DNA of 64,000 bases from an uncultured Rhodothermales bacterium (GTDB taxonomy: Bacteria; Bacteroidota; Rhodothermia; Rhodothermales; VXPQ01), in the NCBI GenBank assembly GCA_965651265.1, contig CBFGRV010000005.1:7708-71707 (forward strand), written 5' to 3'. The notes beneath the pieces were generated by a model. It saw nothing but the letters and a program-made list of their open reading frames with translations, ran no database searches and was not told where the DNA came from. Shown piece by piece: positions 2,804 through 12,995 of this stretch. The position numbers and the translations under genes were made by a program. Position 1 is the stretch's first letter. The number at the start of each line of letters is the position of its first letter.

Positions 2804-3826
2804 TTACTGGCTGGATGTGGATGGTGGCTGCACGAGGATCTGGCGTGCTGACTCCAGGGCCGTAAGTCCAAACTCAACGACTCTAAAAAAGGCTTTGTTC
2901 TGATCGGGCACGACGATGAGCGCGCGCATTCCTTCTTCCAATCCGAACGGCCAAATGCCAATCGGCTCCGAATCTTCGTGGATGTGCTCGTCTGACACGT
3001 CGGTACCGGCGGCTACGAGGAGCGCCGTGGAGATCGCATCGCTCTCCGTGGCGTTTGCGGCCGTGACGGCGGAGAGCACGGCTCCATGGACGGGTTCACC
3101 GCTTCTCGGATCCAGAACGTGTCCGTAGGTCCGGCCGCCGGCCTCGAACGACTTACCCCATACGGCCGAGACCGACAGGGATTCATCCCGGAGATCGACC
3201 AGCGCGAGAGGCTCGTCGCGCGCATCTGGGCGTGGTATGGCGACTTTCCACGCCTCCTCCTCCGGCGGCGACCCGAGGGCGTAGACCGTGCTTGTACCGC
3301 CGTGCAAGAGCGCCCGGTCGACGCCCGCCTCCCGAAGCAGTGCAACGGCTTCGTCGATGGCGTATCCCTTTCCAATTGCACCGAAATCGAGCATCACGCC
3401 TTCTCGAAGGAACCGCACGGATCGATCCGATTCCTGAAGATTCACCAGGTCCATCCCGGTGAGCGCTCGGGCATCCTCCAGCTGTTCCGGATCGGGCATG
3501 TGGCCCGTGTTCCGGAAAAATCCCCATGCCCGCATCAAGGGCGAGATGGTGAGATCGAACGTCCCGTTCGTCTGTCGATGCAGCCGCTTGGCCGTCCGTA
3601 GCAGGTCGAATAGTTCCGACGATACGCGAACGTCCTCGGATGCCGCGCGCGCATTGATGCGGCTTACATCGCTGGCGGCATCGTAGATGGTGAGGCGCGC
3701 CTCTATGCGTTCGATCTCGTCGAGCGCCGCCTCGCCGGCCGCGCGAAGCCTCACGGCGTCCTCCCCGTAGAGAATCAGCTCGAACCGGCACGCCATGGCC
3801 ATCCGAGCCAGCCGGACCGTGACCAT
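2804..3826 (-). CDS. apbE: FAD:protein FMN transferase (ApbE family)
   Basis: 340 aa. N-terminus MACRFELILYGED..AALDEIERIEARLTIYDAASDVSRIN and the later GAIGKGYAIDEA are ApbE hallmarks. No signal peptide or lipobox is visible. Confidence 0.85.
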   Translation of the reverse strand: MVTVRLARMAMACRFELILYGEDAVRLRAAGEAALDEIERIEARLTIYDAASDVSRINARAASEDVRVSSELFDLLRTAKRLHRQTNGTFDLTISPLMRAWGFFRNTGHMPDPEQLEDARALTGMDLVNLQESDRSVRFLREGVMLDFGAIGKGYAIDEAVALLREAGVDRALLHGGTSTVYALGSPPEEEAWKVAIPRPDARDEPLALVDLRDESLSVSAVWGKSFEAGGRTYGHVLDPRSGEPVHGAVLSAVTAANATESDAISTALLVAAGTDVSDEHIHEDSEPIGIWPFGLEEGMRALIVVPDQNKAFFRVVEFGLTALESARQILVQPPSTSSQ

Positions 3827-3931: not shown

Positions 3932-5284
3932 TTACGAAAGCTCGAGCGTTCCGTAGGTAATCGGCTGAATCTCGCGGCCGCTGCCCGTTGTGATCTTGCG
4001 GGTCTTCTCGTCGAAATACAGCATCTCGCCCAGGCGCTCCGACATCTCGGCCAGCGAGATGACGACCTGCGTCTTGATCGCTAGATCGATGTTGCCGTTC
4101 GGCTGCTTGTTCTCGCGAATGGACTCGAGCCAGTTCTGGACGTGAGCCGGCACGCTGACGCCCGGCTCGATGTTCTCATGCACTTCCTGGTCGACGAGAT
4201 CGGCGAAGGGCCGCTCCGGCCGCAGGTTCACGGTATTGCCGCCGAAGTACAGCGTGCCCTCATGCCCGCGAATCACCTGCTCGAGGCCCTGCTCGTTCAC
4301 CGTGCTTCCGATCACCATGATGGTGAGTCCGCTCGGGAATTCGGCCAGAACTTGTGTGTTATCCGGCACATCGCGATCCGGCGTGATCTTGCGCGTCCCG
4401 AGGCACGCCACACGTACGGGAAATTCGGGTGCACCGGTGGCCAGGAGGAGCGGATGGATGCGATGCGCCAGCAGGTCACCGAGAATTCCCGCGCAATAGG
4501 GGTAGTACTTGCGCCAACGGTGATATTCGTCGGCGCTGAAGGGGCGGTCGCTGACCGGGCCAAGCCAACGCTGCCAATCGATGTGCTGAGGATTCGCATC
4601 CGGATCGATCTCGTAGTTCCACTCGCCATCCGGGTTGTTGCGCATATACGAGTCCTGCGCGAGCACGAGAGGGCCGATCTTGCCCGCCTGAATCATCTCG
4701 GCCGCCTTGTGCCATTTACCTTCCGTGCAGTACTGCGAGCCAATCTGGAAGATGGCGCCGGTTTCCATGGCGGTGTCGTAGATATCGAACGCCTCCTCGA
4801 GATACCGCGTCATCGGCTTTTCGCAGTAGACGTGCTTGCCCGCATTCATGGCGTCGACGGCAACCTGCCGGTGCCAGTGGTCGACCGTTCCAATGAATAC
4901 GGCGTCGATATCGTTTCTATCGAGGAGCGCCCGGTAATCACGGTACCCATCCGCCGCGGTTACGCCAAGCTCGGCGACGGCCTGGTCCACCCGCTTGTCG
5001 AACACATCCGACGCAGCCACACCTTCGGCGTTGAACTCGTCGCCGTGCCGCACGATAGTACCCAGGTGCGCATTGAATCCCTGGCCGCCCACACCGATGA
5101 AGCCTACGCGGATTCTGTCATTTGCTCCGATCACTCCGATGGCGGGGCCGGTCTGCGTTACCTGCTCGGCTACCTTAGGAGAGCAGCCAGCCATCACGGC
5201 GGTTGCAGCCAGCGCACTCTTCTTCACGAACTCGCGGCGCGAGGTGCTCACGCCCTTGAAGGCCTTCTTTTTCTTCATGACCAT
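3932..5284 (-). CDS. Gfo/Idh/MocA family oxidoreductase with Tat signal, possibly a lipoprotein
   Basis: Start at internal ATG 5284 gives MVMKKKKAFKGVSTSRREFVKKSALAATAVMAGCS: a twin-arginine motif followed by a lipobox-like MAGC. Rossmann segment RVGFIGVGGQG and HVYCEKPM motif. Confidence 0.8.
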   Translation of the reverse strand: MVMKKKKAFKGVSTSRREFVKKSALAATAVMAGCSPKVAEQVTQTGPAIGVIGANDRIRVGFIGVGGQGFNAHLGTIVRHGDEFNAEGVAASDVFDKRVDQAVAELGVTAADGYRDYRALLDRNDIDAVFIGTVDHWHRQVAVDAMNAGKHVYCEKPMTRYLEEAFDIYDTAMETGAIFQIGSQYCTEGKWHKAAEMIQAGKIGPLVLAQDSYMRNNPDGEWNYEIDPDANPQHIDWQRWLGPVSDRPFSADEYHRWRKYYPYCAGILGDLLAHRIHPLLLATGAPEFPVRVACLGTRKITPDRDVPDNTQVLAEFPSGLTIMVIGSTVNEQGLEQVIRGHEGTLYFGGNTVNLRPERPFADLVDQEVHENIEPGVSVPAHVQNWLESIRENKQPNGNIDLAIKTQVVISLAEMSERLGEMLYFDEKTRKITTGSGREIQPITYGTLELS

Positions 5285-5538
5285 ATGCGGTGTATAGTGG
5301 GATTGAATGTTCTTGCGCAGGATTGATCTATGCTCATGGGAGGGGATATCTCGGCATCGGAGCACCCTCAAATATAAGGTAGACCGGAGGAAGAATGGGG
5401 ACGTTCCGGCGCTTGAGAACGCACTGAAAGCGCGTCCATCGGTCGGATAGGGTGGAAACACCATTTTTCATATACCGTTTCCCGTGAATCATTTTCAAGT
5501 GTATTCCGGTCCAAAACGAAGAGACTCTCAATCCAACC

Positions 5539-6146: not shown

Positions 6147-6851
6147 CTATGGATGCCGGCCCATCGGGGTCTTATCTGACACATCCGTGCCGGGCCCCGG
6201 GATGGATGCATCCATGAGGATGTCGGCGACGCCGCTTCCGACCAATTCCGCGACACGGCTTATCGCCAGATCGTAGTCATCGGCCGCGAGTAGTTCAGGG
6301 ATGCCGGCATCGATCAGGGCATACCACCGTTCCCGTCGCCTCTCAAATGACGGAAAGTGGGCCGACATTGGTGCTCTCAGACGGGCCATCCACTCGAGGA
6401 ATATGGCATACTCCGGGCCAAGCTCGGCCTCCAGCCGCTGGCGCAGTCTTACTGCCAGTGCGGGCGCTGCCCCGGACGTGGAGATGGCTACAGTCAGCTT
6501 CCCTCGCTGGAGGATGGATCCGGCCACGAACGTGCAGTGGGGGACGTCGTCCATGGCATTGATCAAGACCCTCTCGCGCTGAGCTTCCTCCCAGATCGGA
6601 CGGGTGCGCACGGGATCCACGTACGTGACAATCGCCAGGAAAGCGCCGCATAGGTCTCCCTCTTGATAGTCACGGCGATGCCACTCGACATCATATTTCG
6701 ACACGTCAAACTCTGGATCGGCGCCGACGAGAGAAACGGCTGCTTGGCAGGCCAGCAGGCCTTGAATCTTGCGTTCCGCTTCGAGTCCGCTTCCGATGAC
6801 GACACATCGTCGGCCGCCCAGATCATTCAGAAAGATGGGGTAAACCTGCAT
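6147..6851 (-). CDS. Siroheme synthase N-terminal-domain protein (precorrin-2 dehydrogenase / sirohydrochlorin ferrochelatase, SirC/Met8/CysG-N type)
   Basis: MQVYPIFLNDLGGRRCVVIGSGLEAERKIQGLL.. aligns with the CysG N-domain (PIF..L..R.CLVVGGG.VA.RK). Contains ISTSGAAPALA. Start taken at ATG 6851, just after the cysH stop. Confidence 0.75.
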   Translation of the reverse strand: MQVYPIFLNDLGGRRCVVIGSGLEAERKIQGLLACQAAVSLVGADPEFDVSKYDVEWHRRDYQEGDLCGAFLAIVTYVDPVRTRPIWEEAQRERVLINAMDDVPHCTFVAGSILQRGKLTVAISTSGAAPALAVRLRQRLEAELGPEYAIFLEWMARLRAPMSAHFPSFERRRERWYALIDAGIPELLAADDYDLAISRVAELVGSGVADILMDASIPGPGTDVSDKTPMGRHP

Positions 6852-6855
6852 CTCG

Positions 6856-7590
6856 CTAGCTGTCGGCGTTGGGCGGCGCCGGCGCGTCGGCGCGGGCGCT
6901 GCTCGATACGTGAATACCACACTCCAATTTGACGTGCTCAGGCCATCGCCCGGCTCTTTGATCCTCGTGATCGTCCACGGCTCTTGTGCACGGAATGCAG
7001 CCGACGCTCGGGTAGCCTCGGTCGTGAAGGGAGTTGTAGGGAAGATCGTAGAGGTTGATGTAGCGCCAGACGTCGTCGCCCGACCAGTCTACGAGGGGAT
7101 TGATCTTGAGCAGACCGTTTCCATCGTCCCACTCGACGAGACGCGCCATAGCGCGAGTGGGTGATTGATCGCGACGGATGCCTGTGATCCAGGCCGAACG
7201 ATCGCGCAGAAAGCGCCGAAGCGGCTGCACCTTGCGCAAGAAGCAGCATCGATCCGGATCCGTTCGCCAGAGCCGATCCCCCTCACGCCGGGCCTGTTCA
7301 GGAAGGGAGATCCCGGAATGGACGCGGATGAAGCGAACGCCCAGGCGTTTTGCAAGCCGCCTCTTCACCTCATGAGTTTGTGGAAAGAGCAGGTCCGTAT
7401 CCAGGTAGAAGACCTCGGGATCGCAAACGACGCGTGAAAGCATGTGCATGAGCACGACCCCCGACGGGCCAAAGCCGGTTGCGAGGGCGACTTCCCGGCC
7501 GAACGAACTATACGCCCATTCGAGGAGATCCTCCGGGTAGCGGGTGGCGAATCGTTGGTTAAGAGCTGCGATGTCGGAGGAATTCATCAC
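6856..7590 (-). CDS. cysH: Adenylylsulfate (APS)/PAPS reductase, thioredoxin-dependent, Fe-S (APS) type
   Basis: PAPS_reduct fold with C-terminal ECGIH. The additional Cys motifs CCFLRKVQPL and GCIPCT are characteristic of [4Fe-4S] APS reductases. ATGA overlap with the cobA stop. Confidence 0.85.
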   Translation of the reverse strand: MMNSSDIAALNQRFATRYPEDLLEWAYSSFGREVALATGFGPSGVVLMHMLSRVVCDPEVFYLDTDLLFPQTHEVKRRLAKRLGVRFIRVHSGISLPEQARREGDRLWRTDPDRCCFLRKVQPLRRFLRDRSAWITGIRRDQSPTRAMARLVEWDDGNGLLKINPLVDWSGDDVWRYINLYDLPYNSLHDRGYPSVGCIPCTRAVDDHEDQRAGRWPEHVKLECGIHVSSSARADAPAPPNADS

Positions 7591-8390
7591 GTCGACCTCA
7601 CCACAATGGATCTCAAGAGCGCGGGTCCGTGAAGCGCGGAAGCGGGCTCGTCTTGCGGCCGGATTCGATCTCGCAATGCCACGACGTCGCCGATCACGAT
7701 CGTGGCGGGCGGAGCGAGATTCCTGGCGCGTTCACTGATGTCGGACAGCGTCCCGAAGACGGCCACCTGCCTGTTTGTCGTGCCGGAGGCGATTACCGCC
7801 ACCGGCGTCTTTGAAGGGCGCCCGGCCTGAATCAGGCTATGGGCGACCTCAGCCAGGCGTTGAAGTCCCATCAGGACCACGATCGTGCCGATGGAGGCCA
7901 GCGCTTTCCAGTCCGGCTCATCGTTCTCATAGGCCGTACGACCGGTTACCACGGCGAACCCGGTCGAGACCTGACGATGGGTCAGCGGAATTCCCACGCC
8001 GCCCGGAACGGCGACCGCGCTTGTGATGCCTGGTACGACCTCGCAGCGGATGCCGGCGGCCGCGAGAGCCAGACACTCCTCGCCGCCTCTTCCGAAGACG
8101 AACGGATCGCCGCCCTTGAGTCGAACGACGATTCGGCCGCGTCGCGCGTGCTCGATCAAAAGCCCGTTGATATCCTCCTGCCGGTAGCTGTGGCCCTCGG
8201 GCGATTTGCCCGCGAATATCCGGGCGGCATCCGGCCGAACGTAGTCGAGCAGGTCGGGGTGTACAAGGCGATCGTACACTACGGTGTCGGCCAGGCGCAG
8301 CAACTTCAGCCCCTTCACGGTGATGAGCTCCGGATCGCCGGGACCCGCCCCCACGAGGTAGACGACGGCGGATTCAGGCCGGCTGGGCAT
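7587..8390 (-). CDS. cobA: Uroporphyrinogen-III C-methyltransferase (SUMT)
   Basis: VYLVGAGPGDPELITVKGLKLLRLADTVVYDRLV, RLKGGDPFVFGRGGEE and VVPGITSA. Start chosen at ATG 8390 (MPSRPESAVVYLVGAGPGD); the ORF-track start at 8432 would overlap cysI by 59 nt. Confidence 0.85.
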   Translation of the reverse strand: MPSRPESAVVYLVGAGPGDPELITVKGLKLLRLADTVVYDRLVHPDLLDYVRPDAARIFAGKSPEGHSYRQEDINGLLIEHARRGRIVVRLKGGDPFVFGRGGEECLALAAAGIRCEVVPGITSAVAVPGGVGIPLTHRQVSTGFAVVTGRTAYENDEPDWKALASIGTIVVLMGLQRLAEVAHSLIQAGRPSKTPVAVIASGTTNRQVAVFGTLSDISERARNLAPPATIVIGDVVALRDRIRPQDEPASALHGPALLRSIVVRST

Positions 8391-10104
8391 CGCTTTCGAG
8401 CTCTTTGATGTGATCATCGATGTCCGTGACACCGAAGCGCAGGCAGAAGTCGCCCAACGACTCTCCGGGCACTCGCTGCGCCTTGTAGATGCTCAGCACG
8501 GTGCGCAGCGTAGGAACGATCTCGTCGATGGGCACGAGATCGCGGAAAGGTTTATTCAGGCGCGTTCCTGACGATGTGCCGCCGAGGAAAAGCGCATATC
8601 GGCCCGGTGAGCGCCCAACGATTCCGATCTCGGAGAGGTAGGGTCGCGCACATCCGTTTGGACATCCCGTCATGCGGACGCCGATTCGTTCTTCCTGCAA
8701 ATCGAGTTTTTGGATTTCGGTCTCCAGTGCGTCCAGGAGATCGGGCATGGCGCGTTCTGCTTCGGCAAGCGCGAGGCCGCACGTCGGTAGCGCGGGGCAT
8801 GCCATGGCGAGTTGCCGCAGCGGGCTGATCTGGTCGACATCCGTAATTCCCAATCCTGCGAGCAGGGCATCGATCGCGGCACGGTCCCTCGGCTCGATGT
8901 CGGTCAGGAGGACGTTTTGATTGGGCGTCAGGCGAATCCCCGGGCGAAAACGAGCGACGATGTCTCGAAGCCCGGCCTTGAGCGGCCCGCCGATGCGGCC
9001 GTTTTCGATGTAGATGCCCAGGTACCATCTTCCATCGTGCTGCCGGCTCCAACCGAGGTAGAGCTCGAGCTCGAGAGGTGGGACGTCAACCGGCTCGGGC
9101 AATTCGTAGCCGAGCCGCTCGAAGAGCGCAGATCTGAATCTGTCGACGCCCCAGTCGTCGACCAGGTACTTCAGCCGCGCGCGGCGCCGGTTGTTGCGGT
9201 CGCCGTGGTCGCGTTGAATCAGAACGATCGCTTCGACGACATCCACCACGCGCTCGACCGTGGCAAACCCAATCGGATCGGCGAGTCGGGGATAGGTCTC
9301 CGACTTGTTGTGCGTCATGCCGAGGCCGCCGCCCGCCAGCACATTGAATCCGATGAGCTGCCCATTGCGCACCACTGCCACCAGTCCGACATCCTGTGAA
9401 TACACATCGATGCTGTTATCGCCCGGAAAGGCGATTCCCACCTTGAACTTCCGTGGGAGGTAGGTCTCGCCGTAGATCGGATCGGGCTCCACCTTCGCCA
9501 CACTCGAGTCGACCCTCTCGCCATCGAGCCAGATTTCGTGATAAGCCCGCGTCTTCGGAAGGAGGTGCTCGCTTAGCTGCCTCGCAATATCCAGGATTTC
9601 GAAGTGAAAGGGCTCGCTTGGGGGCACGGGCGTGTACATCAGGTTGCGGGCAACGTCACCGCAGGCCGCCAGTGTCGTGACAAGCGACTCGTTGATCTCG
9701 GCAATCGCCTCCTTCAAGTCCTGCTTGAGGACGGAGTGCAACTGCAGGCCCTGCCGCGTCGTGACGCGGAGGGTGCCGTTCCCAAACCGATCAGCGAGCT
9801 CGTCGTGCACGAGATATTGCTCGGCCGTCAGCTGCCCGCCCGGAATTCGGGACCGGATCATGAAGATGTGGTGCCTATCGGCCTGGCGCCGATCGCGATC
9901 ATCCTGCTGGTAGACGCCGTGGAACTTGAGGATCTGGCGATCGACCTCATCGAAGTGATTCGTACCATCCCGGAGAGAGGCGCACAAGTTTGCGCGGAGG
10001 CCACGGCTTCCTCGCTTGATGGATTCGACCGTGAGCTTCGGTGCCTTCGAAAAGCCTGGTGGCAACTTCGCACGATTGCGCGCAGGTAGAGGTCGTTCCG
10101 GCAT
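8374..10104 (-). CDS. cysI: Assimilatory sulfite reductase hemoprotein (siroheme/[4Fe-4S]); electron donor (flavoprotein or ferredoxin) not resolved
   Basis: KFHGVYQQDDRD motif. Siroheme/Fe-S cysteine motifs ACPALPTCGLA and TGCPNGCARP. Start at ATG 10104; the track start at 10146 is a TTG inside the terminator U-tract. Confidence 0.85.
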   Translation of the reverse strand: MPERPLPARNRAKLPPGFSKAPKLTVESIKRGSRGLRANLCASLRDGTNHFDEVDRQILKFHGVYQQDDRDRRQADRHHIFMIRSRIPGGQLTAEQYLVHDELADRFGNGTLRVTTRQGLQLHSVLKQDLKEAIAEINESLVTTLAACGDVARNLMYTPVPPSEPFHFEILDIARQLSEHLLPKTRAYHEIWLDGERVDSSVAKVEPDPIYGETYLPRKFKVGIAFPGDNSIDVYSQDVGLVAVVRNGQLIGFNVLAGGGLGMTHNKSETYPRLADPIGFATVERVVDVVEAIVLIQRDHGDRNNRRRARLKYLVDDWGVDRFRSALFERLGYELPEPVDVPPLELELYLGWSRQHDGRWYLGIYIENGRIGGPLKAGLRDIVARFRPGIRLTPNQNVLLTDIEPRDRAAIDALLAGLGITDVDQISPLRQLAMACPALPTCGLALAEAERAMPDLLDALETEIQKLDLQEERIGVRMTGCPNGCARPYLSEIGIVGRSPGRYALFLGGTSSGTRLNKPFRDLVPIDEIVPTLRTVLSIYKAQRVPGESLGDFCLRFGVTDIDDHIKELESDAQPA

Positions 10105-10144
10105 ATGGATAGGTTGGATGGAGTCGGGGGCGAAGGGAGTGCAC

Positions 10145-10179
10145 AAAAAAGCCCGCTCATCAGCGCGAGATGAGCGGGC
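10145..10179 (-). terminator. Intrinsic (Rho-independent) terminator inside the cysI leader
   Basis: The minus strand reads GCCCGCTCATC-TCGCGCT-GATGAGCGGGC-TTTTTT: an 11-bp perfect stem, 7-nt loop and U6 tract. It ends 40 nt upstream of the cysI ATG. Confidence 0.8.
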
Positions 10180-10212
10180 GAGTCCCGAAGGGTCTGACGG
10201 CGCGCGTGCGCG

Positions 10213-10332
10213 CTAGTCGTTTCGGCAAGCTCTTGCATCGCTCATCCGCATACAGGTGCAGCACTGCATGCACGGCATACACCGACAGCAGCGGGCACCA
10301 CAAGGATGGGAAGAGGACGAATGGCGATGCAT
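10213..10332 (-). CDS. Candidate leader peptide (39 aa, 9 Cys + 5 Met) of a sulfur-amino-acid attenuator
   Basis: Hand translation of the minus strand from ATG 10332-10330 to TAG 10215-10213 gives MHRHSSSSHPCGARCCRCMPCMQCCTCMRMSDARACRND. It is under 60 aa and so absent from the ORF track. It lies between the fprA stop and the terminator. No SD-like sequence was seen. Confidence 0.55.
   Translation of the reverse strand: MHRHSSSSHPCGARCCRCMPCMQCCTCMRMSDARACRND
10234..10249 (-). promoter_or_regulatory. Candidate attenuator segment 2 (alternative pairing partner)
   Basis: The minus strand reads GCGGATGAGCGATGCA. GATGAGCG (10246-10239) is complementary to CGCTCATC in the terminator 5' arm (10176-10169). 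GCGATGCA (10241-10234) is complementary to TGCATCGC at the uORF start (10331-10324). The two pairings share bases and are mutually exclusive. Confidence 0.45.
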
Positions 10333-10524
10333 TAGAGTGTGAGTCGCGTGGTTGGGCGAGCGTTGATGTGCAAGAAATCGCAGGGCGGGCGCCGTGTCAA
10401 CTATGCTATGTCACCGGAAGCGATACCGAATTGTGTAGATTCGATGAAGAAGTGCGGCATTCGCTGCCAATAAGGGCTGCCGCCGAACCATCTCCATGGA
10501 ACTGCGCCGTGGGGGCGAGGGGCA

Positions 10525-11925
10525 TCAATCTGGTGGATGTCGAACCGCCGCCCACATCTCGTCGATGCTCGTGAACTTCACGCGTGGCCGCCCGAGCGCC
10601 TCACCCCGCTGAATCTCCATTTGATCCAGGCGGCACCAATCCTCGTAGGTGAAGAAGCGTGGCTGACGTTCACGGATCAGGCGCTCGATGGCCTGCGCCG
10701 AGGGCTCCGCCGGCTCGAGGACGAGTCCCGCCTGGAGATCCTGCATCATGGCTTCGACGGTTTCGACCGCATCGGCCTTGTTCGTGCCGATGACTCCGGT
10801 AGGCCCGCGCTTTATCCATCCGGCAACATACTCGCCAGTGACATGGTGGCGCGTCTTCGGGTCCAGGACGCGACCGGATTCGTTCAAAATGACGCTCCAA
10901 TTCTCGTCGAACGGAACATCAGGCAGGGGCACGCCCTCGTAGCCGACGGACCGAAACACCAGCTGTGCCGGCAACTCCTCGTGCTGGCCGGTAGGACGCG
11001 GGCGAAGCCGTCCGCGCTCGTCCCGATACAGCTCATTTCGCACGACGCGAAGTCCCATCACGCGACCCTCGCTGTCGCCGAGGATCTCTACCGGCGAGAC
11101 CAGAAACCGGATGTGGAGCTGGCGGCTTTTGCCCGACGGGCGATTCTTCGAGAACTCCTGCATAATCTCGACATTGCGCACCGTATTGCGATCGGCAGAC
11201 TCCAGGTCGGCGGCGCTTTCCGGGTCCAATTCGACGTCCTCTTGCGTGACCAGGCAGTCCGCATCCTCCATCTCGCCCAGCTCCTTCACCTCGGGTGGGG
11301 TGAAGGCCGCCTGAGCGGGACCACGCCGCCCCAGCATATAAACCTCCCGGACGCGGCTTCGACGCAGCGCATCCAGCGCATAGTCGGCGATATCGGTCTG
11401 CGCGAGCTCCTCCGGGGTGCGACACAGGATCCGCGCCACATCGACAGCCACATTCCCGACCCCGATGATCGCCACCTGCTCGGCGGAAAGGTCGAAGGTC
11501 AGATGACGAAAGTCCGGATGTCCGTTATACCACGCCACGAATTCCGTGGCGGAGTGGCTTCCGGCGAGATCTTCGCCCGGAATGCCCATCGACCGGTCGG
11601 TCTGTGCGCCGGTCGCGTACACGATCATATGGTAATGCCGCCGCAGATCGTCGCGCGTCACGTCGGTGCCGAACTCGACATTTCCGTAGAAGCGGAATCC
11701 CTGCTGCATGGCCGTCTTGTGGAAGACCCGGCACACGTTCTTGATCTTCTGATGATCGGGAGCTACACCTCCACGAACGAGCCCGAAGGGGGTCGGCAGC
11801 CGGTCGAACATATCGACCTCGATGGCTCGATTCGCCTGCTTGAGCAGGGCATCAGCGGCATAGAATGCGGCCGGCCCCGCTCCAATGATGGCGACGCGCA
11901 AGGGCTGCACTTCAATGGCGAGCAT
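10525..11925 (-). CDS. fprA: NADPH:ferredoxin (adrenodoxin-type) reductase, FprA-like
   Basis: 466 aa. VAIIGAGPAAFYAADALLK, PTPFGLVRGGVAPDH, IIGVGNVAVDVARIL, GRRGPAQAAFT and GWIKRGPTGVIGTNK closely parallel mycobacterial FprA and adrenodoxin reductase. Confidence 0.8.
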   Translation of the reverse strand: MLAIEVQPLRVAIIGAGPAAFYAADALLKQANRAIEVDMFDRLPTPFGLVRGGVAPDHQKIKNVCRVFHKTAMQQGFRFYGNVEFGTDVTRDDLRRHYHMIVYATGAQTDRSMGIPGEDLAGSHSATEFVAWYNGHPDFRHLTFDLSAEQVAIIGVGNVAVDVARILCRTPEELAQTDIADYALDALRRSRVREVYMLGRRGPAQAAFTPPEVKELGEMEDADCLVTQEDVELDPESAADLESADRNTVRNVEIMQEFSKNRPSGKSRQLHIRFLVSPVEILGDSEGRVMGLRVVRNELYRDERGRLRPRPTGQHEELPAQLVFRSVGYEGVPLPDVPFDENWSVILNESGRVLDPKTRHHVTGEYVAGWIKRGPTGVIGTNKADAVETVEAMMQDLQAGLVLEPAEPSAQAIERLIRERQPRFFTYEDWCRLDQMEIQRGEALGRPRVKFTSIDEMWAAVRHPPD

Positions 11926-11945: not shown

Positions 11946-12995
11946 TCAGGACGCGCGCTCCAATCGCTCCTGCAGCCGAAAAATGGCGGATTCTCGCACG
12001 ATCAAGCGCGCTGCAAAGATTCGACGCACAGGCCCCACCGGGCGTTCGCTCTCCAGATGGCGGAGCAGTTCGTGCGCGGCAGCGTTGCCGATTTCCGTCT
12101 TGGGGATGGCCATCGTGGTCAGCGGCGGGGAAGTATGTGCGGCGATGGGGATATCATCATACCCTATGATGGCCAGGTCGTTCGGGATGCGCAGCCCGGC
12201 TGAACGCGCCACCTCCATCGCGCCGAGCGCCATCAGATCGTTCGCCGCGAATACGGCCTCCGGCGGATCGGCGAACTTGAGAAGTCGGCGCATGGCCGTC
12301 TGCCCGCCACTGAATCGGAAGTCGCCATCGACCACGAAACGGCTGTCGAACTCGACACCTCCGACCTGCAGTGCTCGCCGAAAACCGCGATACTGATTCA
12401 AGCGACCATAGCTCCGACTACCGGGGCCCGTGAGCGGACCCGATATCATCCCGATTCGGGTAAAGCCTTGTTCGATGAGGTGCATCGTGGCGTCAAAAGC
12501 GCCCTGCTCCGAATCCACCAGCAACTTGGTTATGCCCTCGATCCCGTAATCGCGCTCGATGGCCACCACCGGCATCTGAGGGTTCTCTGTTACGAACTCT
12601 TCGACATCCTCCTTCCGTACACAATCCCCGATCAGCACGACGGCATCGACCTGCTTCTCGAGTAGCATCCGATAGTTCTCTTCGCCGATTTGGAAGCTGT
12701 GATTCGAGTCGCATAGAACGAGGGATCGCTCGTGTTTGCGAAGCTCGTGGCTCAAACTGCGCACGATGTCCGTGTAGAAGGGATTGGTGATGTCGGAGAC
12801 GATCACGCCCACGGTGAAACTGCGCCGCGTCTTCAGGCTCTGTGCCAGTCGATTTGGGCGGTAGTTGAGGGCGCGAATGGCCTCCATGACGCGGGCGCGC
12901 GTGGAATGCGGCACCCAATCCGCGTCGTTGATGACGGCGGAGACAGTCGCAATGGACACGCCGCAATGATGTGCTACGTCCTTGATGGTCGGCAT
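11946..12995 (-). CDS. LacI family transcriptional regulator
   Basis: N-terminal HTH MPTIKDVAHHCGVSIATVSAVIN..RVMEAIRALNYRPNRLAQSL followed by a periplasmic-binding-fold sensor domain. Its stop is 20 nt upstream of the fprA start on the same strand. Confidence 0.85.
   Translation of the reverse strand: MPTIKDVAHHCGVSIATVSAVINDADWVPHSTRARVMEAIRALNYRPNRLAQSLKTRRSFTVGVIVSDITNPFYTDIVRSLSHELRKHERSLVLCDSNHSFQIGEENYRMLLEKQVDAVVLIGDCVRKEDVEEFVTENPQMPVVAIERDYGIEGITKLLVDSEQGAFDATMHLIEQGFTRIGMISGPLTGPGSRSYGRLNQYRGFRRALQVGGVEFDSRFVVDGDFRFSGGQTAMRRLLKFADPPEAVFAANDLMALGAMEVARSAGLRIPNDLAIIGYDDIPIAAHTSPPLTTMAIPKTEIGNAAAHELLRHLESERPVGPVRRIFAARLIVRESAIFRLQERLERAS

Follow-up and report, generated by a model that had tools for sequence, protein, structure and literature searches.

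The 64-kb stretch of Rhodothermales DNA presented above (hereafter the window) carries, on its minus strand and upstream of an operon made of cysI, cobA, cysH and a sirohaem synthase gene, a leader that is probably a ribosome-mediated (leader-peptide) transcription attenuator of this operon. The leader contains a 39-codon upstream open reading frame (uORF) rich in cysteine and methionine, RNA segments able to form mutually exclusive helices and an intrinsic terminator located before cysI, and it exhibits the sequence-level features of a classical trp/his-type attenuator. The initial annotation of the window had proposed such an attenuation working on Cys and Met codons, and this reading is supported by the conservation of the module, its independence of the neighbouring genes, the helix energies, a simulation of ribosome positions and the lack of a riboswitch match. 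From these data we infer the transcription start, the translation of the uORF, the stalling, the termination and the physiological response.

The uORF and its codons are located as follows, the leader nucleotides being numbered from the A of the uORF AUG.

10213 to 10332, minus strand: leader ORF of 39 codons, peptide MHRHSSSSHPCGARCCRCMPCMQCCTCMRMSDARACRND followed by a stop, identified by its translation, its Cys/Met enrichment and analogous uORFs in 15 of 15 relatives
10249 to 10302, minus strand: regulatory codon run, codons 11-28, with 8 Cys (4 UGU, 4 UGC) and 3 Met codons, identified by translation, enrichment and simulation
10215 to 10213, minus strand: stop codon of the uORF, leader nucleotides 118-120, 33 nt before the terminator

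The translation was identical to the one given initially for an unannotated ORF from ATG 10332 to TAG 10213 (MHRHSSSSHPCGARCCRCMPCMQCCTCMRMSDARACRND), this ATG being the earliest start available in the frame, and the stop codon is separated by 108 nt from the cysI ATG (10104) on the same strand. The announced 9 Cys and 5 Met in 39 residues were exact, with 8 Cys found within residues 11-27. Tandem Cys residues are present at C15-C16 and C24-C25, at least two consecutive Cys codons being the criterion used for mycobacterial small ORFs (sORFs), and the ninth Cys codon (C36, UGC) and M30 are both located 3' of the regulatory run. The 33 long ORFs of the window, taken as amino-acid background, contain 0.93% Cys and 2.0% Met. 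Compared with them, the uORF showed 24% Cys (binomial P of 7e-11 for at least 9 Cys in 38 residues) and 11% internal Met (P of 0.007). When the entire 64 kb were dinucleotide-shuffled 40 times and read in six frames, the richest stretches reached 4-6 Cys per 17 residues, versus 8 in the uORF. As the Cys density exceeds both the shuffles and the background of the window, it is not a composition artefact. No second terminator/leader motif and no further Cys/Met-rich uORF were found elsewhere in the window, and a stretch of 64 kb does not allow a regulon to be claimed.

The RNA segments downstream of, or overlapping, the uORF are the following.

10316 to 10332, minus strand, leader nucleotides 1-17: segment 1, AUGCAUCGCCAUUCGUC, 5' strand of the anti-antiterminator, paired with segment 2 in the minimum-free-energy fold
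10234 to 10249, minus strand, leader nucleotides 84-99: segment 2, GCGGAUGAGCGAUGCA, pairing with segment 1 or, via GAUGAGCG, with the terminator 5' arm
10169 to 10179, minus strand, leader nucleotides 154-164: segment 3, terminator 5' arm GCCCGCUCAUC, 100% paired in 5 sequences
10151 to 10161, minus strand, leader nucleotides 172-182: segment 4, terminator 3' arm GAUGAGCGGGC, in a hairpin of -22.0 kcal/mol
10145 to 10150, minus strand, leader nucleotides 183-188: U6 tract of the intrinsic terminator, T4-T10 at this place in relatives

The 11-bp terminator described at 10179-10145 consists of a perfect stem (10179..10151) with 8 G-C pairs and a 7-nt loop, and its U6 tract, described 40 nt before the cysI ATG, corresponds to the T6 at 10150..10145. 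The statement that it is the sole canonical terminator in 64 kb was essentially right, the other matches having at most 8 pairs with at most 4 G-C. Their number equals the shuffle expectation across positions 1-60000, and in the last 4 kb 8 terminator-like matches were counted versus 2.9 ± 1.7 expected, all of them weak. The two alternative pairings proposed initially were both recovered: UGCAUCGC (10331-10324) with GCGAUGCA (10241-10234), in a helix reaching 15 bp with one bulge, and GAUGAGCG (10246-10239) with CGCUCAUC (10176-10169). The uORF start codon is part of the conserved core of segment 1, UGCAUCGC (10331-10324).

Comparison of the helix energies, suggested along with these pairings, gave -22.6 kcal/mol for 1:2, -16.8 kcal/mol for 2:3 and -22.0 kcal/mol for 3:4. 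The fold of the 301-nt leader has a z of -3.6 relative to shuffles and, when unconstrained, contains helices 1:2 and 3:4. When segment 4 was blocked, as if not yet transcribed, segment 2 was still held by segment 1 in the ribosome-free RNA, and upon blocking of both segments 1 and 4 the 2:3 helix appeared. The Rfam search showed no riboswitch or leader family on this leader, neither at the gathering score over the whole window nor at E up to 10 in 10050-10560; the sub-threshold matches sX13, Atu_C7 and mir-5366 were rejected as they cover the bare terminator hairpin only.

We then moved a ribosome with a 28-nt footprint along the uORF in silico, helices being barred from spanning the ribosome and the downstream RNA being folded up to the terminator loop. 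In this simulation, segment 2 was paired with 10 nt of the terminator 5' arm for all A-site positions in codons 2-25, among which are 7 of the 9 Cys codons and 2 of the 4 internal Met ones. The 2:3 pairing decayed at codons 26-27 and was zero from codon 28 to the stop. The energy gained from the 5' arm in the stalled state was -11.5 kcal/mol, compared to -5.1 ± 2.6 for shuffled sequences (4 of 300 as good), and with the ribosome at the stop codon it fell to -3.0 kcal/mol. Helix energies and ribosome scan agree, and the four-segment scheme is thus energetically coherent.

In the mechanism that we propose, transcription would start near 10365 from the leader's own promoter and a ribosome would translate the 39-codon leader while RNA polymerase advances. 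If Cys-tRNA, and probably also elongator Met-tRNA, were scarce, the ribosome would stall at codons 11-25, between segments 1 and 2; the freed segment 2 (GAUGAGCG) would capture the terminator 5' arm (CGCUCAUC) as it emerges, no terminator would form and the polymerase would enter cysI. With ample sulfur amino acids, the ribosome would pass segment 2 and reach the stop codon, 33 nt before the terminator. Segment 2 would then be covered, kept away from segment 3 or taken back by segment 1, which would allow the 11-bp terminator hairpin and its U6 tract to form and end transcription 40 nt before cysI. A leader that is not translated would adopt the 1:2 and 3:4 helices and should be terminated too.

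The conservation of the module was examined, as the initial annotation had advised, in 15 relatives, 14 loci picked by CysI similarity alone and one (L099) obtained from a leader-pattern scan of metagenomes. These relatives span Rhodothermales-like bacteria, Salinibacter and Balneolales; the lineage is sparsely sampled, since the nearest non-identical CysI relatives are only 62-65% identical. A Cys-rich uORF was found upstream of the operon in 15 of the 15 distinct loci. In 10 of them (type A), the uORF is followed by a strong stem of 10-14 pairs with at most one mismatch and by a T-run (T4-T10). Their leader peptides are listed below together with that of L091, in which the uORF and the beginning of a stem resembling the L090/L102 terminator were seen, the remainder lying beyond the stretch analysed.

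L005, from a Rhodothermales metagenome-assembled genome (MAG): MHRISTSSSVFSSDMCLCLLPMQHCTCMKMSDADMCRACC
L081: MMHRVTQISLTACMCLCMQSMQHCTRAEMSDASMNRFET
L083, with a GTG start: MHRAAHIMFSSAAGCCCCCMATHACAELSDAMTRFVC
L099: MRRIALIANCSTCDSCLCCCMDSHTCAELSDAMARFVC
L087 (CP020382.1): MVTRSSIAPVGLPRQVCCMCLCDGMCMCCCDAYASACTRMGHAGAPRGSGT
L089: MIARAHTVCCMCVLCDGCMCCTRTRTPGCRGPQENAGCSSNDRLF
L103: MVALFQVMPMCCDGCMCCTRPPRHARMEEMQVHR
L090: MRISLCMCMQGMTRTTKPLEGSGQT
L102: MRMSPCMCMCMRGMTRNTTPMGELRQT
L091: MRRSVCMCMCMRAMTPNTTPLEGLRRT
L101, AT-rich Balneolales: MPNSMCMCPCCCKAVLRDRGLSIYCDW

Counting the window, 8 of 11 measured leaders have their stop codon 29-35 nt ahead of the terminator stem. The other four loci (type B), among which Salinibacter, possess a SAM-I (S-adenosylmethionine) riboswitch with its own terminator, then a Cys-rich uORF and then cysI. 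The aptamers matched RF00162 at 72-92 bits, and the uORF coordinates are approximate.

L084: aptamer 2422-2531, Cys uORF about 2650-2803
L088: aptamer 2450-2564, Cys uORF about 2693-2826
L092: aptamer 1239-1355, Cys uORF about 1490-1632
L001 (Salinibacter): aptamer 2198-2313, Cys uORF about 2450-2568

Examples of type B uORF peptides are MPLPAHPMCCCCSSRC and ...EICLCRCCRMAMSCC. To our knowledge, a riboswitch in tandem with a Cys-sensing uORF has not been described.

The first gene after the leader differs in two loci. It is cobA in L099 (leader oriented 3445-3625, ORF from 3706), and in L101 the leader (1935-2080) lies in front of a rhodanese gene, after which come cysI-cobA-cysH-cysG and a gene resembling sulfate/Na+ symporters. 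The leader goes with the pathway and not with cysI itself. We observed also that public CysI calls in relatives are N-terminally extended by 35-120 residues (models of 610-630 aa: P0002, P0004, P0018). The start called for P0020 (698 aa) in L091, at position 3001, falls inside the uORF coding for CMCMCM, and leader and terminator are hidden in a mis-annotated coding sequence (CDS). Small ORFs of this kind are missed by gene callers or absorbed into over-extended cysI models, and the one of the window, so far unannotated, deserves to be flagged.

Two promoter-like elements precede the leader.

10395 to 10400, minus strand: TTGACA, putative -35-like hexamer, TTGAC(A/G) at the same relative position in L005, L081, L083, L099 and L089
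10372 to 10381, minus strand: GCGATTTCTT, putative -10-like block 13-17 nt after the -35, (G/T)AT(T/C)(T/C)CTT with equal spacing in relatives

Upstream of the leaders of the window and of these five relatives, the consensus is TTGAC(A/G)-N17-19-(T/G)AT(T/C)(T/C)CTT. In the window, the TTGACA lies 63 nt and the -10-like block about 40 nt upstream of the uORF AUG, with a predicted 5' untranslated region (UTR) of about 30 nt. A sigma-70 scan did not call the promoter-like block of the leader, because the downstream element is not TATAAT-like, and the block may reflect the promoter type of the lineage. As a separate observation, the sequence CTTCATCGAATCTACACAA is present just 5' of the -35-like box (10449-10431, minus strand) and near-identical only in L005 (2597-2615); it may bind a transcription factor and provide a further layer of control, or simply mark a closer kinship between the window and L005.

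The gene located upstream of the module varies between loci: fprA, a divergent GFO/IDH/MocA gene, BtpA/DUF525 genes on the other strand or a gene for an extracytoplasmic function (ECF) sigma factor, with the promoter-like block kept. The module would therefore belong to the sulfite-reductase operon and have its own promoter. Such an independence removes the plain explanation of the hairpin as an ordinary 3' terminator of fprA, in which the Cys-rich frame would be a by-product of GC-rich palindromes (UGC/GCA). This coincidence draws on the position of fprA, upstream on the same strand with no intervening terminator, and on the off-frame Cys-rich readings that GC-rich DNA yielded at 7 of 51 distant control loci. 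It is contradicted by the comparative data, the module being found before cysI with opposite-strand or unrelated upstream genes, as well as in an AT-rich Balneolales genome, with its own conserved promoter-like block. The 8 Cys in 17 residues moreover exceeded all 40 whole-window shuffles (40/40), and we hold such a coincidence to be extremely improbable.

We considered also that the ORF could code for a functional Cys-rich micro-protein, metal- or sulfur-binding or redox-active, the hairpin ending a small transcript and cysI being expressed by read-through or from another promoter. Cys-rich small proteins are known, peTrpL (PMC7298713) is a precedent for a leader peptide having a second function, and MSDA/LSDA and the N-terminal MHR are kept in a 5-member subfamily that includes the window. 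In this subfamily, the only parts of the uORF that do not vary are its Cys/Met codons and segments 1 (UGC..CGC) and 2 (UGAGCGAUGC), the latter being the same in the five members though it lies within the uORF and codes for MSDA or LSDA; the sequence from segment 2 to the terminator varies freely. The conserved peptide motifs (MHR at the start, MSDA/LSDA) thus coincide with the two RNA pairing segments, which speaks against a micro-protein, as does L099, where a GCAUCGC copy sits 6 nt further 3' in another reading frame and codes for R-I-A. Beyond the subfamily, neither sequence nor length (25 to 51 aa) is kept. Over the 417 residues compared, only composition is, with Cys at 17% and internal Met at 11% versus 0.9% and 2.0% in the background. 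This is the signature of a leader peptide rather than of a folded micro-protein. Also at odds with a micro-protein, no homologous called protein was found among 5.8 billion sequences and the Cys-rich ORF is always located immediately 5' of the sulfite-reductase operon. A micro-protein accordingly appears very unlikely.

The antiterminator helix was evaluated in the subfamily and in the other relatives. In the five subfamily members, helix 2:3 is 96% paired with no pair changing on both sides, helix 3:4 is fully (100%) paired and contains a single compensatory pair, and helix 1:2 has an 8-bp core present in all five with one pair changing on both sides. Outside the window, the clearest cases are L101, L081 and L005. 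In L101, AGAGAUAGGGGUUU, just past the Cys run, pairs with the terminator arm AAGCCCGCUAUCUCU at -20.1 kcal/mol and the stalled-state gain is -13.7 versus -4.0 ± 2.6 for shuffles (P about 0.007). In the same way, L081 showed a gain of -14.5 versus -5.0 ± 2.4, with 0 of 300 shuffles as good. The antiterminator duplex of L005 has an energy of -20.2 kcal/mol (0 of 200 shuffles as good), its stalled-state value being uninformative because the stall codon chosen, C27, masks segment 2. In the footprint scan, L087 exhibited a three-state pattern, with 13 paired nt solely when the ribosome is in the Cys run.

Several results weigh against the attenuator that we propose. No Shine-Dalgarno sequence precedes the uORF, whose translation is a prediction; cysI likewise lacks one, which is consistent with a Bacteroidota-like lineage. 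The Cys codons are located between segments 1 and 2 and not within segment 1 as in trp, so that the model presupposes, and the simulation has built in, that no helix closes around the stalled ribosome. A ribosome at the stop codon leaves the core of segment 2 physically uncovered, and termination in the replete state therefore depends on the separation of segments 2 and 3 or on recapture by segment 1. Only the window has the 7-bp extension of helix 1:2. The covariation on which the initial annotation had counted as a check found no statistical support: the stems are near-invariant in the 5-member subfamily, and for that reason do not covary, and shuffles scored at least as high for covariation in 39 of 500 runs for 1:2 and 3:4 together and in 500 of 500 for 2:3. 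Among the terminator-bearing relatives, the antiterminator was no better than shuffles in L087, L089, L103, L090 and L102 by the duplex and stalled-state tests, and was weak in L083 and L099 (P about 0.17). In L081, L083, L099 and L101, the ribosome-free truncated transcript already favours 2:3, and the state in which an untranslated leader leads to termination is therefore not general. Finally, a leader-peptide profile search of 5.8 billion predicted proteins returned no relative, and with no candidates the leader family cannot be sized by protein search.

These points leave room for a Cys uORF that senses Cys-tRNA without a 2:3 antiterminator, by ribosome-polymerase coupling, through Rho or by translational control of cysI, the hairpin being then a constitutive partial terminator or an RNA-stability element. 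The five terminator-bearing relatives without a better-than-shuffled antiterminator fit such a system, as do L084, L088, L092 and L001, in which no clear second U-tract terminator was found after the Cys uORF, and the experimentally proven precedent for a Cys uORF is translational. It accounts poorly for the window, L081, L005 and L101, where the antiterminator is clearly above chance and located between the Cys run and the stop codon, and for a segment 2 invariant at synonymous positions. Translational control is further opposed by the cysI start region (10104 and 40 nt upstream), which is unpaired in the minimum-free-energy fold and offers no ribosome-binding site for sequestration. We judge this alternative unlikely, and the terminator/antiterminator attenuator remains our preferred reading. 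The 2:3 switch is well supported for the window, its near relatives and one independent lineage, and unproven for the whole group.

The role of the Met codons is a separate question. Internal Met codons are about five times as frequent as in the background and are interspersed among the Cys codons (CMC, CMCMCM; CMPCMQCC in the peptides). Internal Met represents 11% of the residues (46/417) in leaders without SAM riboswitch and 4% (7/173) in those with it (Fisher P of 0.007), for sequences that are phylogenetically non-independent and with type B start codons that are uncertain. No SAM-I riboswitch (RF00162) was detected in the window at the gathering score, nor at E up to 10 in 10050-10560. 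It is conceivable, and we advance it tentatively as possible rather than probable, that the leader is a dual sensor of Cys-tRNA and elongator Met-tRNA through its interleaved UGY and AUG codons, replacing the SAM-I riboswitch and Met-poor Cys uORF of the sister lineages. An AUG adjoining a UGC creates palindromes (UGCAUGCA), maybe selected for structure, which weakens the argument for Met sensing. If the dual sensor were true, it would be the first attenuator with methionine codons and would document an evolutionary swap between a metabolite-binding riboswitch and leader-peptide codons for the same regulatory input. The sister genomes, with SAM riboswitch and Cys uORF before the same operon, constitute a natural experiment on the substitution of riboswitch and ribosome-based sensing.

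The regulated operon and its upstream neighbour are composed as follows.

8374 to 10104, minus strand: cysI/sir, assimilatory sulfite reductase haemoprotein, first regulated gene (NF010029, 734 bits for a cut-off of 457)
7587 to 8432, minus strand: cobA, uroporphyrinogen-III C-methyltransferase for sirohaem synthesis, second gene (NF004790, 302 bits), gene order the same in relatives
6856 to 7590, minus strand: cysH, phosphoadenosine phosphosulfate (PAPS)/adenosine phosphosulfate (APS) reductase, third gene (NF002537, 247 bits)
6147 to 6920, minus strand: gene with a sirohaem synthase N-terminal domain (precorrin-2 dehydrogenase/ferrochelatase), fourth gene (TIGR01470, 122 bits)
10525 to 11925, minus strand: fprA-type NADPH-ferredoxin reductase, upstream neighbour outside the conserved leader module (PDB 1LQT, E of 5e-120)

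The four operon genes are all on the minus strand and abut or overlap, the start of the sirohaem synthase gene being uncertain as the listed ORF overlaps cysH. From this content, the regulated unit would turn activated sulfate into sulfide and also make the sirohaem that the reductase needs as cofactor. For assimilatory sulfate reduction, the leader is a regulatory element that is concrete, conserved and open to experiment. The 420-nt gap reported between fprA and cysI was found again, from the fprA stop at 10525 to the cysI ATG at 10104. The fprA product is homologous to M. tuberculosis FprA (1LQT, E of 5e-120). A gene of the FprA/adrenodoxin-reductase type is located at or near cysI in several genomes (the window; L081:1-323; L083:1-1077) where cysJ is absent, which suggests that the FprA-type reductase feeds electrons via ferredoxin to a ferredoxin-type sulfite reductase; the top-scoring NCBIfam name for the CysI of the window is nonetheless 'NADPH-dependent'. 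A LacI-family repressor gene (11946-12995, minus strand) lies directly upstream of fprA on the same strand. Past the 3' end of the operon we found a GFO/IDH/MocA oxidoreductase gene (3932-5464), and genes of this family neighbour the operon also in L081, L083, L091 and L102.

The genome scan with CysI comprised 80 loci, 75 of which are distant (26-34% identity) and were used as control only. They come mostly from Verrucomicrobiota, plus Kribbella, an Actinomycetota MAG and a Yoonia MAG. Cys-rich frames of the distant loci were rejected as off-frame readings of the upstream gene or of cysI itself, and L002 (Sulfobacillus), L003 and L004 (both Nitriliruptorales) showed no convincing Cys uORF. 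A Cys-rich frame 'W-RCGW-RCC--RC' precedes a nirA/cysI-like gene of Akkermansiaceae (L034:2345-2515), with equivalents in L033, L045, L054, L065, L067 and L079. In L034, the one inspected, it is an off-frame reading of the 573-aa upstream gene (949-2670) and was rejected as a leader peptide; its conserved motif is common to five others of the 7 Cys-rich control loci, and this artefact calls for caution in Cys-uORF screens of GC-rich DNA. The metagenome scan with TGAGCGATGC-N40-70-CCCGCTCATCTC gave 8 matches, of which one, L099, is a true leader. The other seven were discarded: five fall in one transporter-like CDS of about 300 aa, L098 is inside a long ORF and L097, an unrelated sequence, contains no Cys-rich frame.

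As for known systems, Rfam 15 gave no match for any of the leaders except the type B SAM aptamers. The literature on Cys/Met leader peptides in Bacteroidetes, Rhodothermus or relatives yielded nothing relevant, and to this extent the novelty claimed in the initial annotation stands. The concept of Cys-codon uORFs was already known from mycobacteria and, as a prediction, from cysS in Rhodobacterales. With the predictions of PMC8632094 and PMC1262725, the idea is not new and only the family, the operon and the lineage are. That lineage, Rhodothermota/Balneolota, of phylum level and related to Bacteroidota, has genes without Shine-Dalgarno sequences and a barely charted RNA-level regulation.

The mycobacterial polycysteine leaderless sORFs (Ms5788A), in which a ribosome stalled at Cys codons relieves the repression of the operon that follows (Canestrari et al. 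2020, bioRxiv 10.1101/834739 / Mol Microbiol 114:93), are the sole experimentally tested Cys-sensing uORF system that we found; they act on translation, by unmasking a ribosome-binding site (Canestrari et al. 2020, 10.1101/834739). The initial annotation cited them as a precedent shown by experiment; they work by ribosome-binding-site sequestration on a leaderless mRNA and are not terminator-based. They share with the window leader a Cys-run uORF upstream of genes for cysteine or sulfur assimilation, and differ from it in that the latter combines a canonical intrinsic terminator and an antiterminator, has a 5' UTR predicted at about 30 nt, lacks a sequestrable ribosome-binding site and contains a uORF rich in Met as well. 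As terminator-free sequestration of a ribosome-binding site is not what we found, the window leader is placed outside this translational class.

Closer in mechanism is uORFC-8-2, located upstream of cysS in Rhodobacterales and predicted to be a ribosome-mediated transcription attenuator (Brewer et al. 2021, PMC8632094). Described by computation only, it combines a conserved AUG with adjacent Cys codons, mostly at positions 14-15, and with a terminator stem followed by a U run (PMC8632094), and the window leader similarly has tandem Cys codons at positions 15-16. It concerns the gene of the Cys-tRNA synthetase in Alphaproteobacteria, with two Cys codons and no Met enrichment, whereas the window leader precedes cysI; the two are set apart by the downstream gene, and no sequence relationship is evident. 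In actinobacterial cys/cbs operons, candidate leader peptides with Cys-codon runs near the stop codon have been reported (Seliverstov et al. 2005, PMC1262725), for which that study found no terminator hairpins and suggested a dependence on Rho (PMC1262725), in contrast to the strong conserved intrinsic terminator present here about 30 nt after the stop codon. The SAM-I (S-box) riboswitch shares with our leader a terminator-based control of Cys/Met-pathway genes by a sulfur metabolite; the window contains no aptamer, and sensing would proceed by tRNA charging and not by ligand binding.

The nearest likeness is to the classical attenuators trp, his, leu, thr, ilv and pheA of E. coli and Salmonella, with which the window leader has in common a uORF of end-product codons, exclusive 1:2, 2:3 and 3:4 helices and a terminator before the first gene. 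Sensing of several amino acids has precedents among them, in thr (Thr, Ile) and ilv (Leu, Val, Ile). The window leader differs from the classical attenuators by the amino acid, Cys and probably Met, by regulatory codons located in the 1-2 loop, by a segment 1 that includes the start codon, by the lack of a Shine-Dalgarno sequence, by its Rhodothermota-like lineage and by having no match to an Rfam leader family. No concept is overturned, since the mechanism is the textbook one; with this leader, cysteine, and possibly methionine, would join the amino acids placed under classical terminator/antiterminator leader-peptide control.

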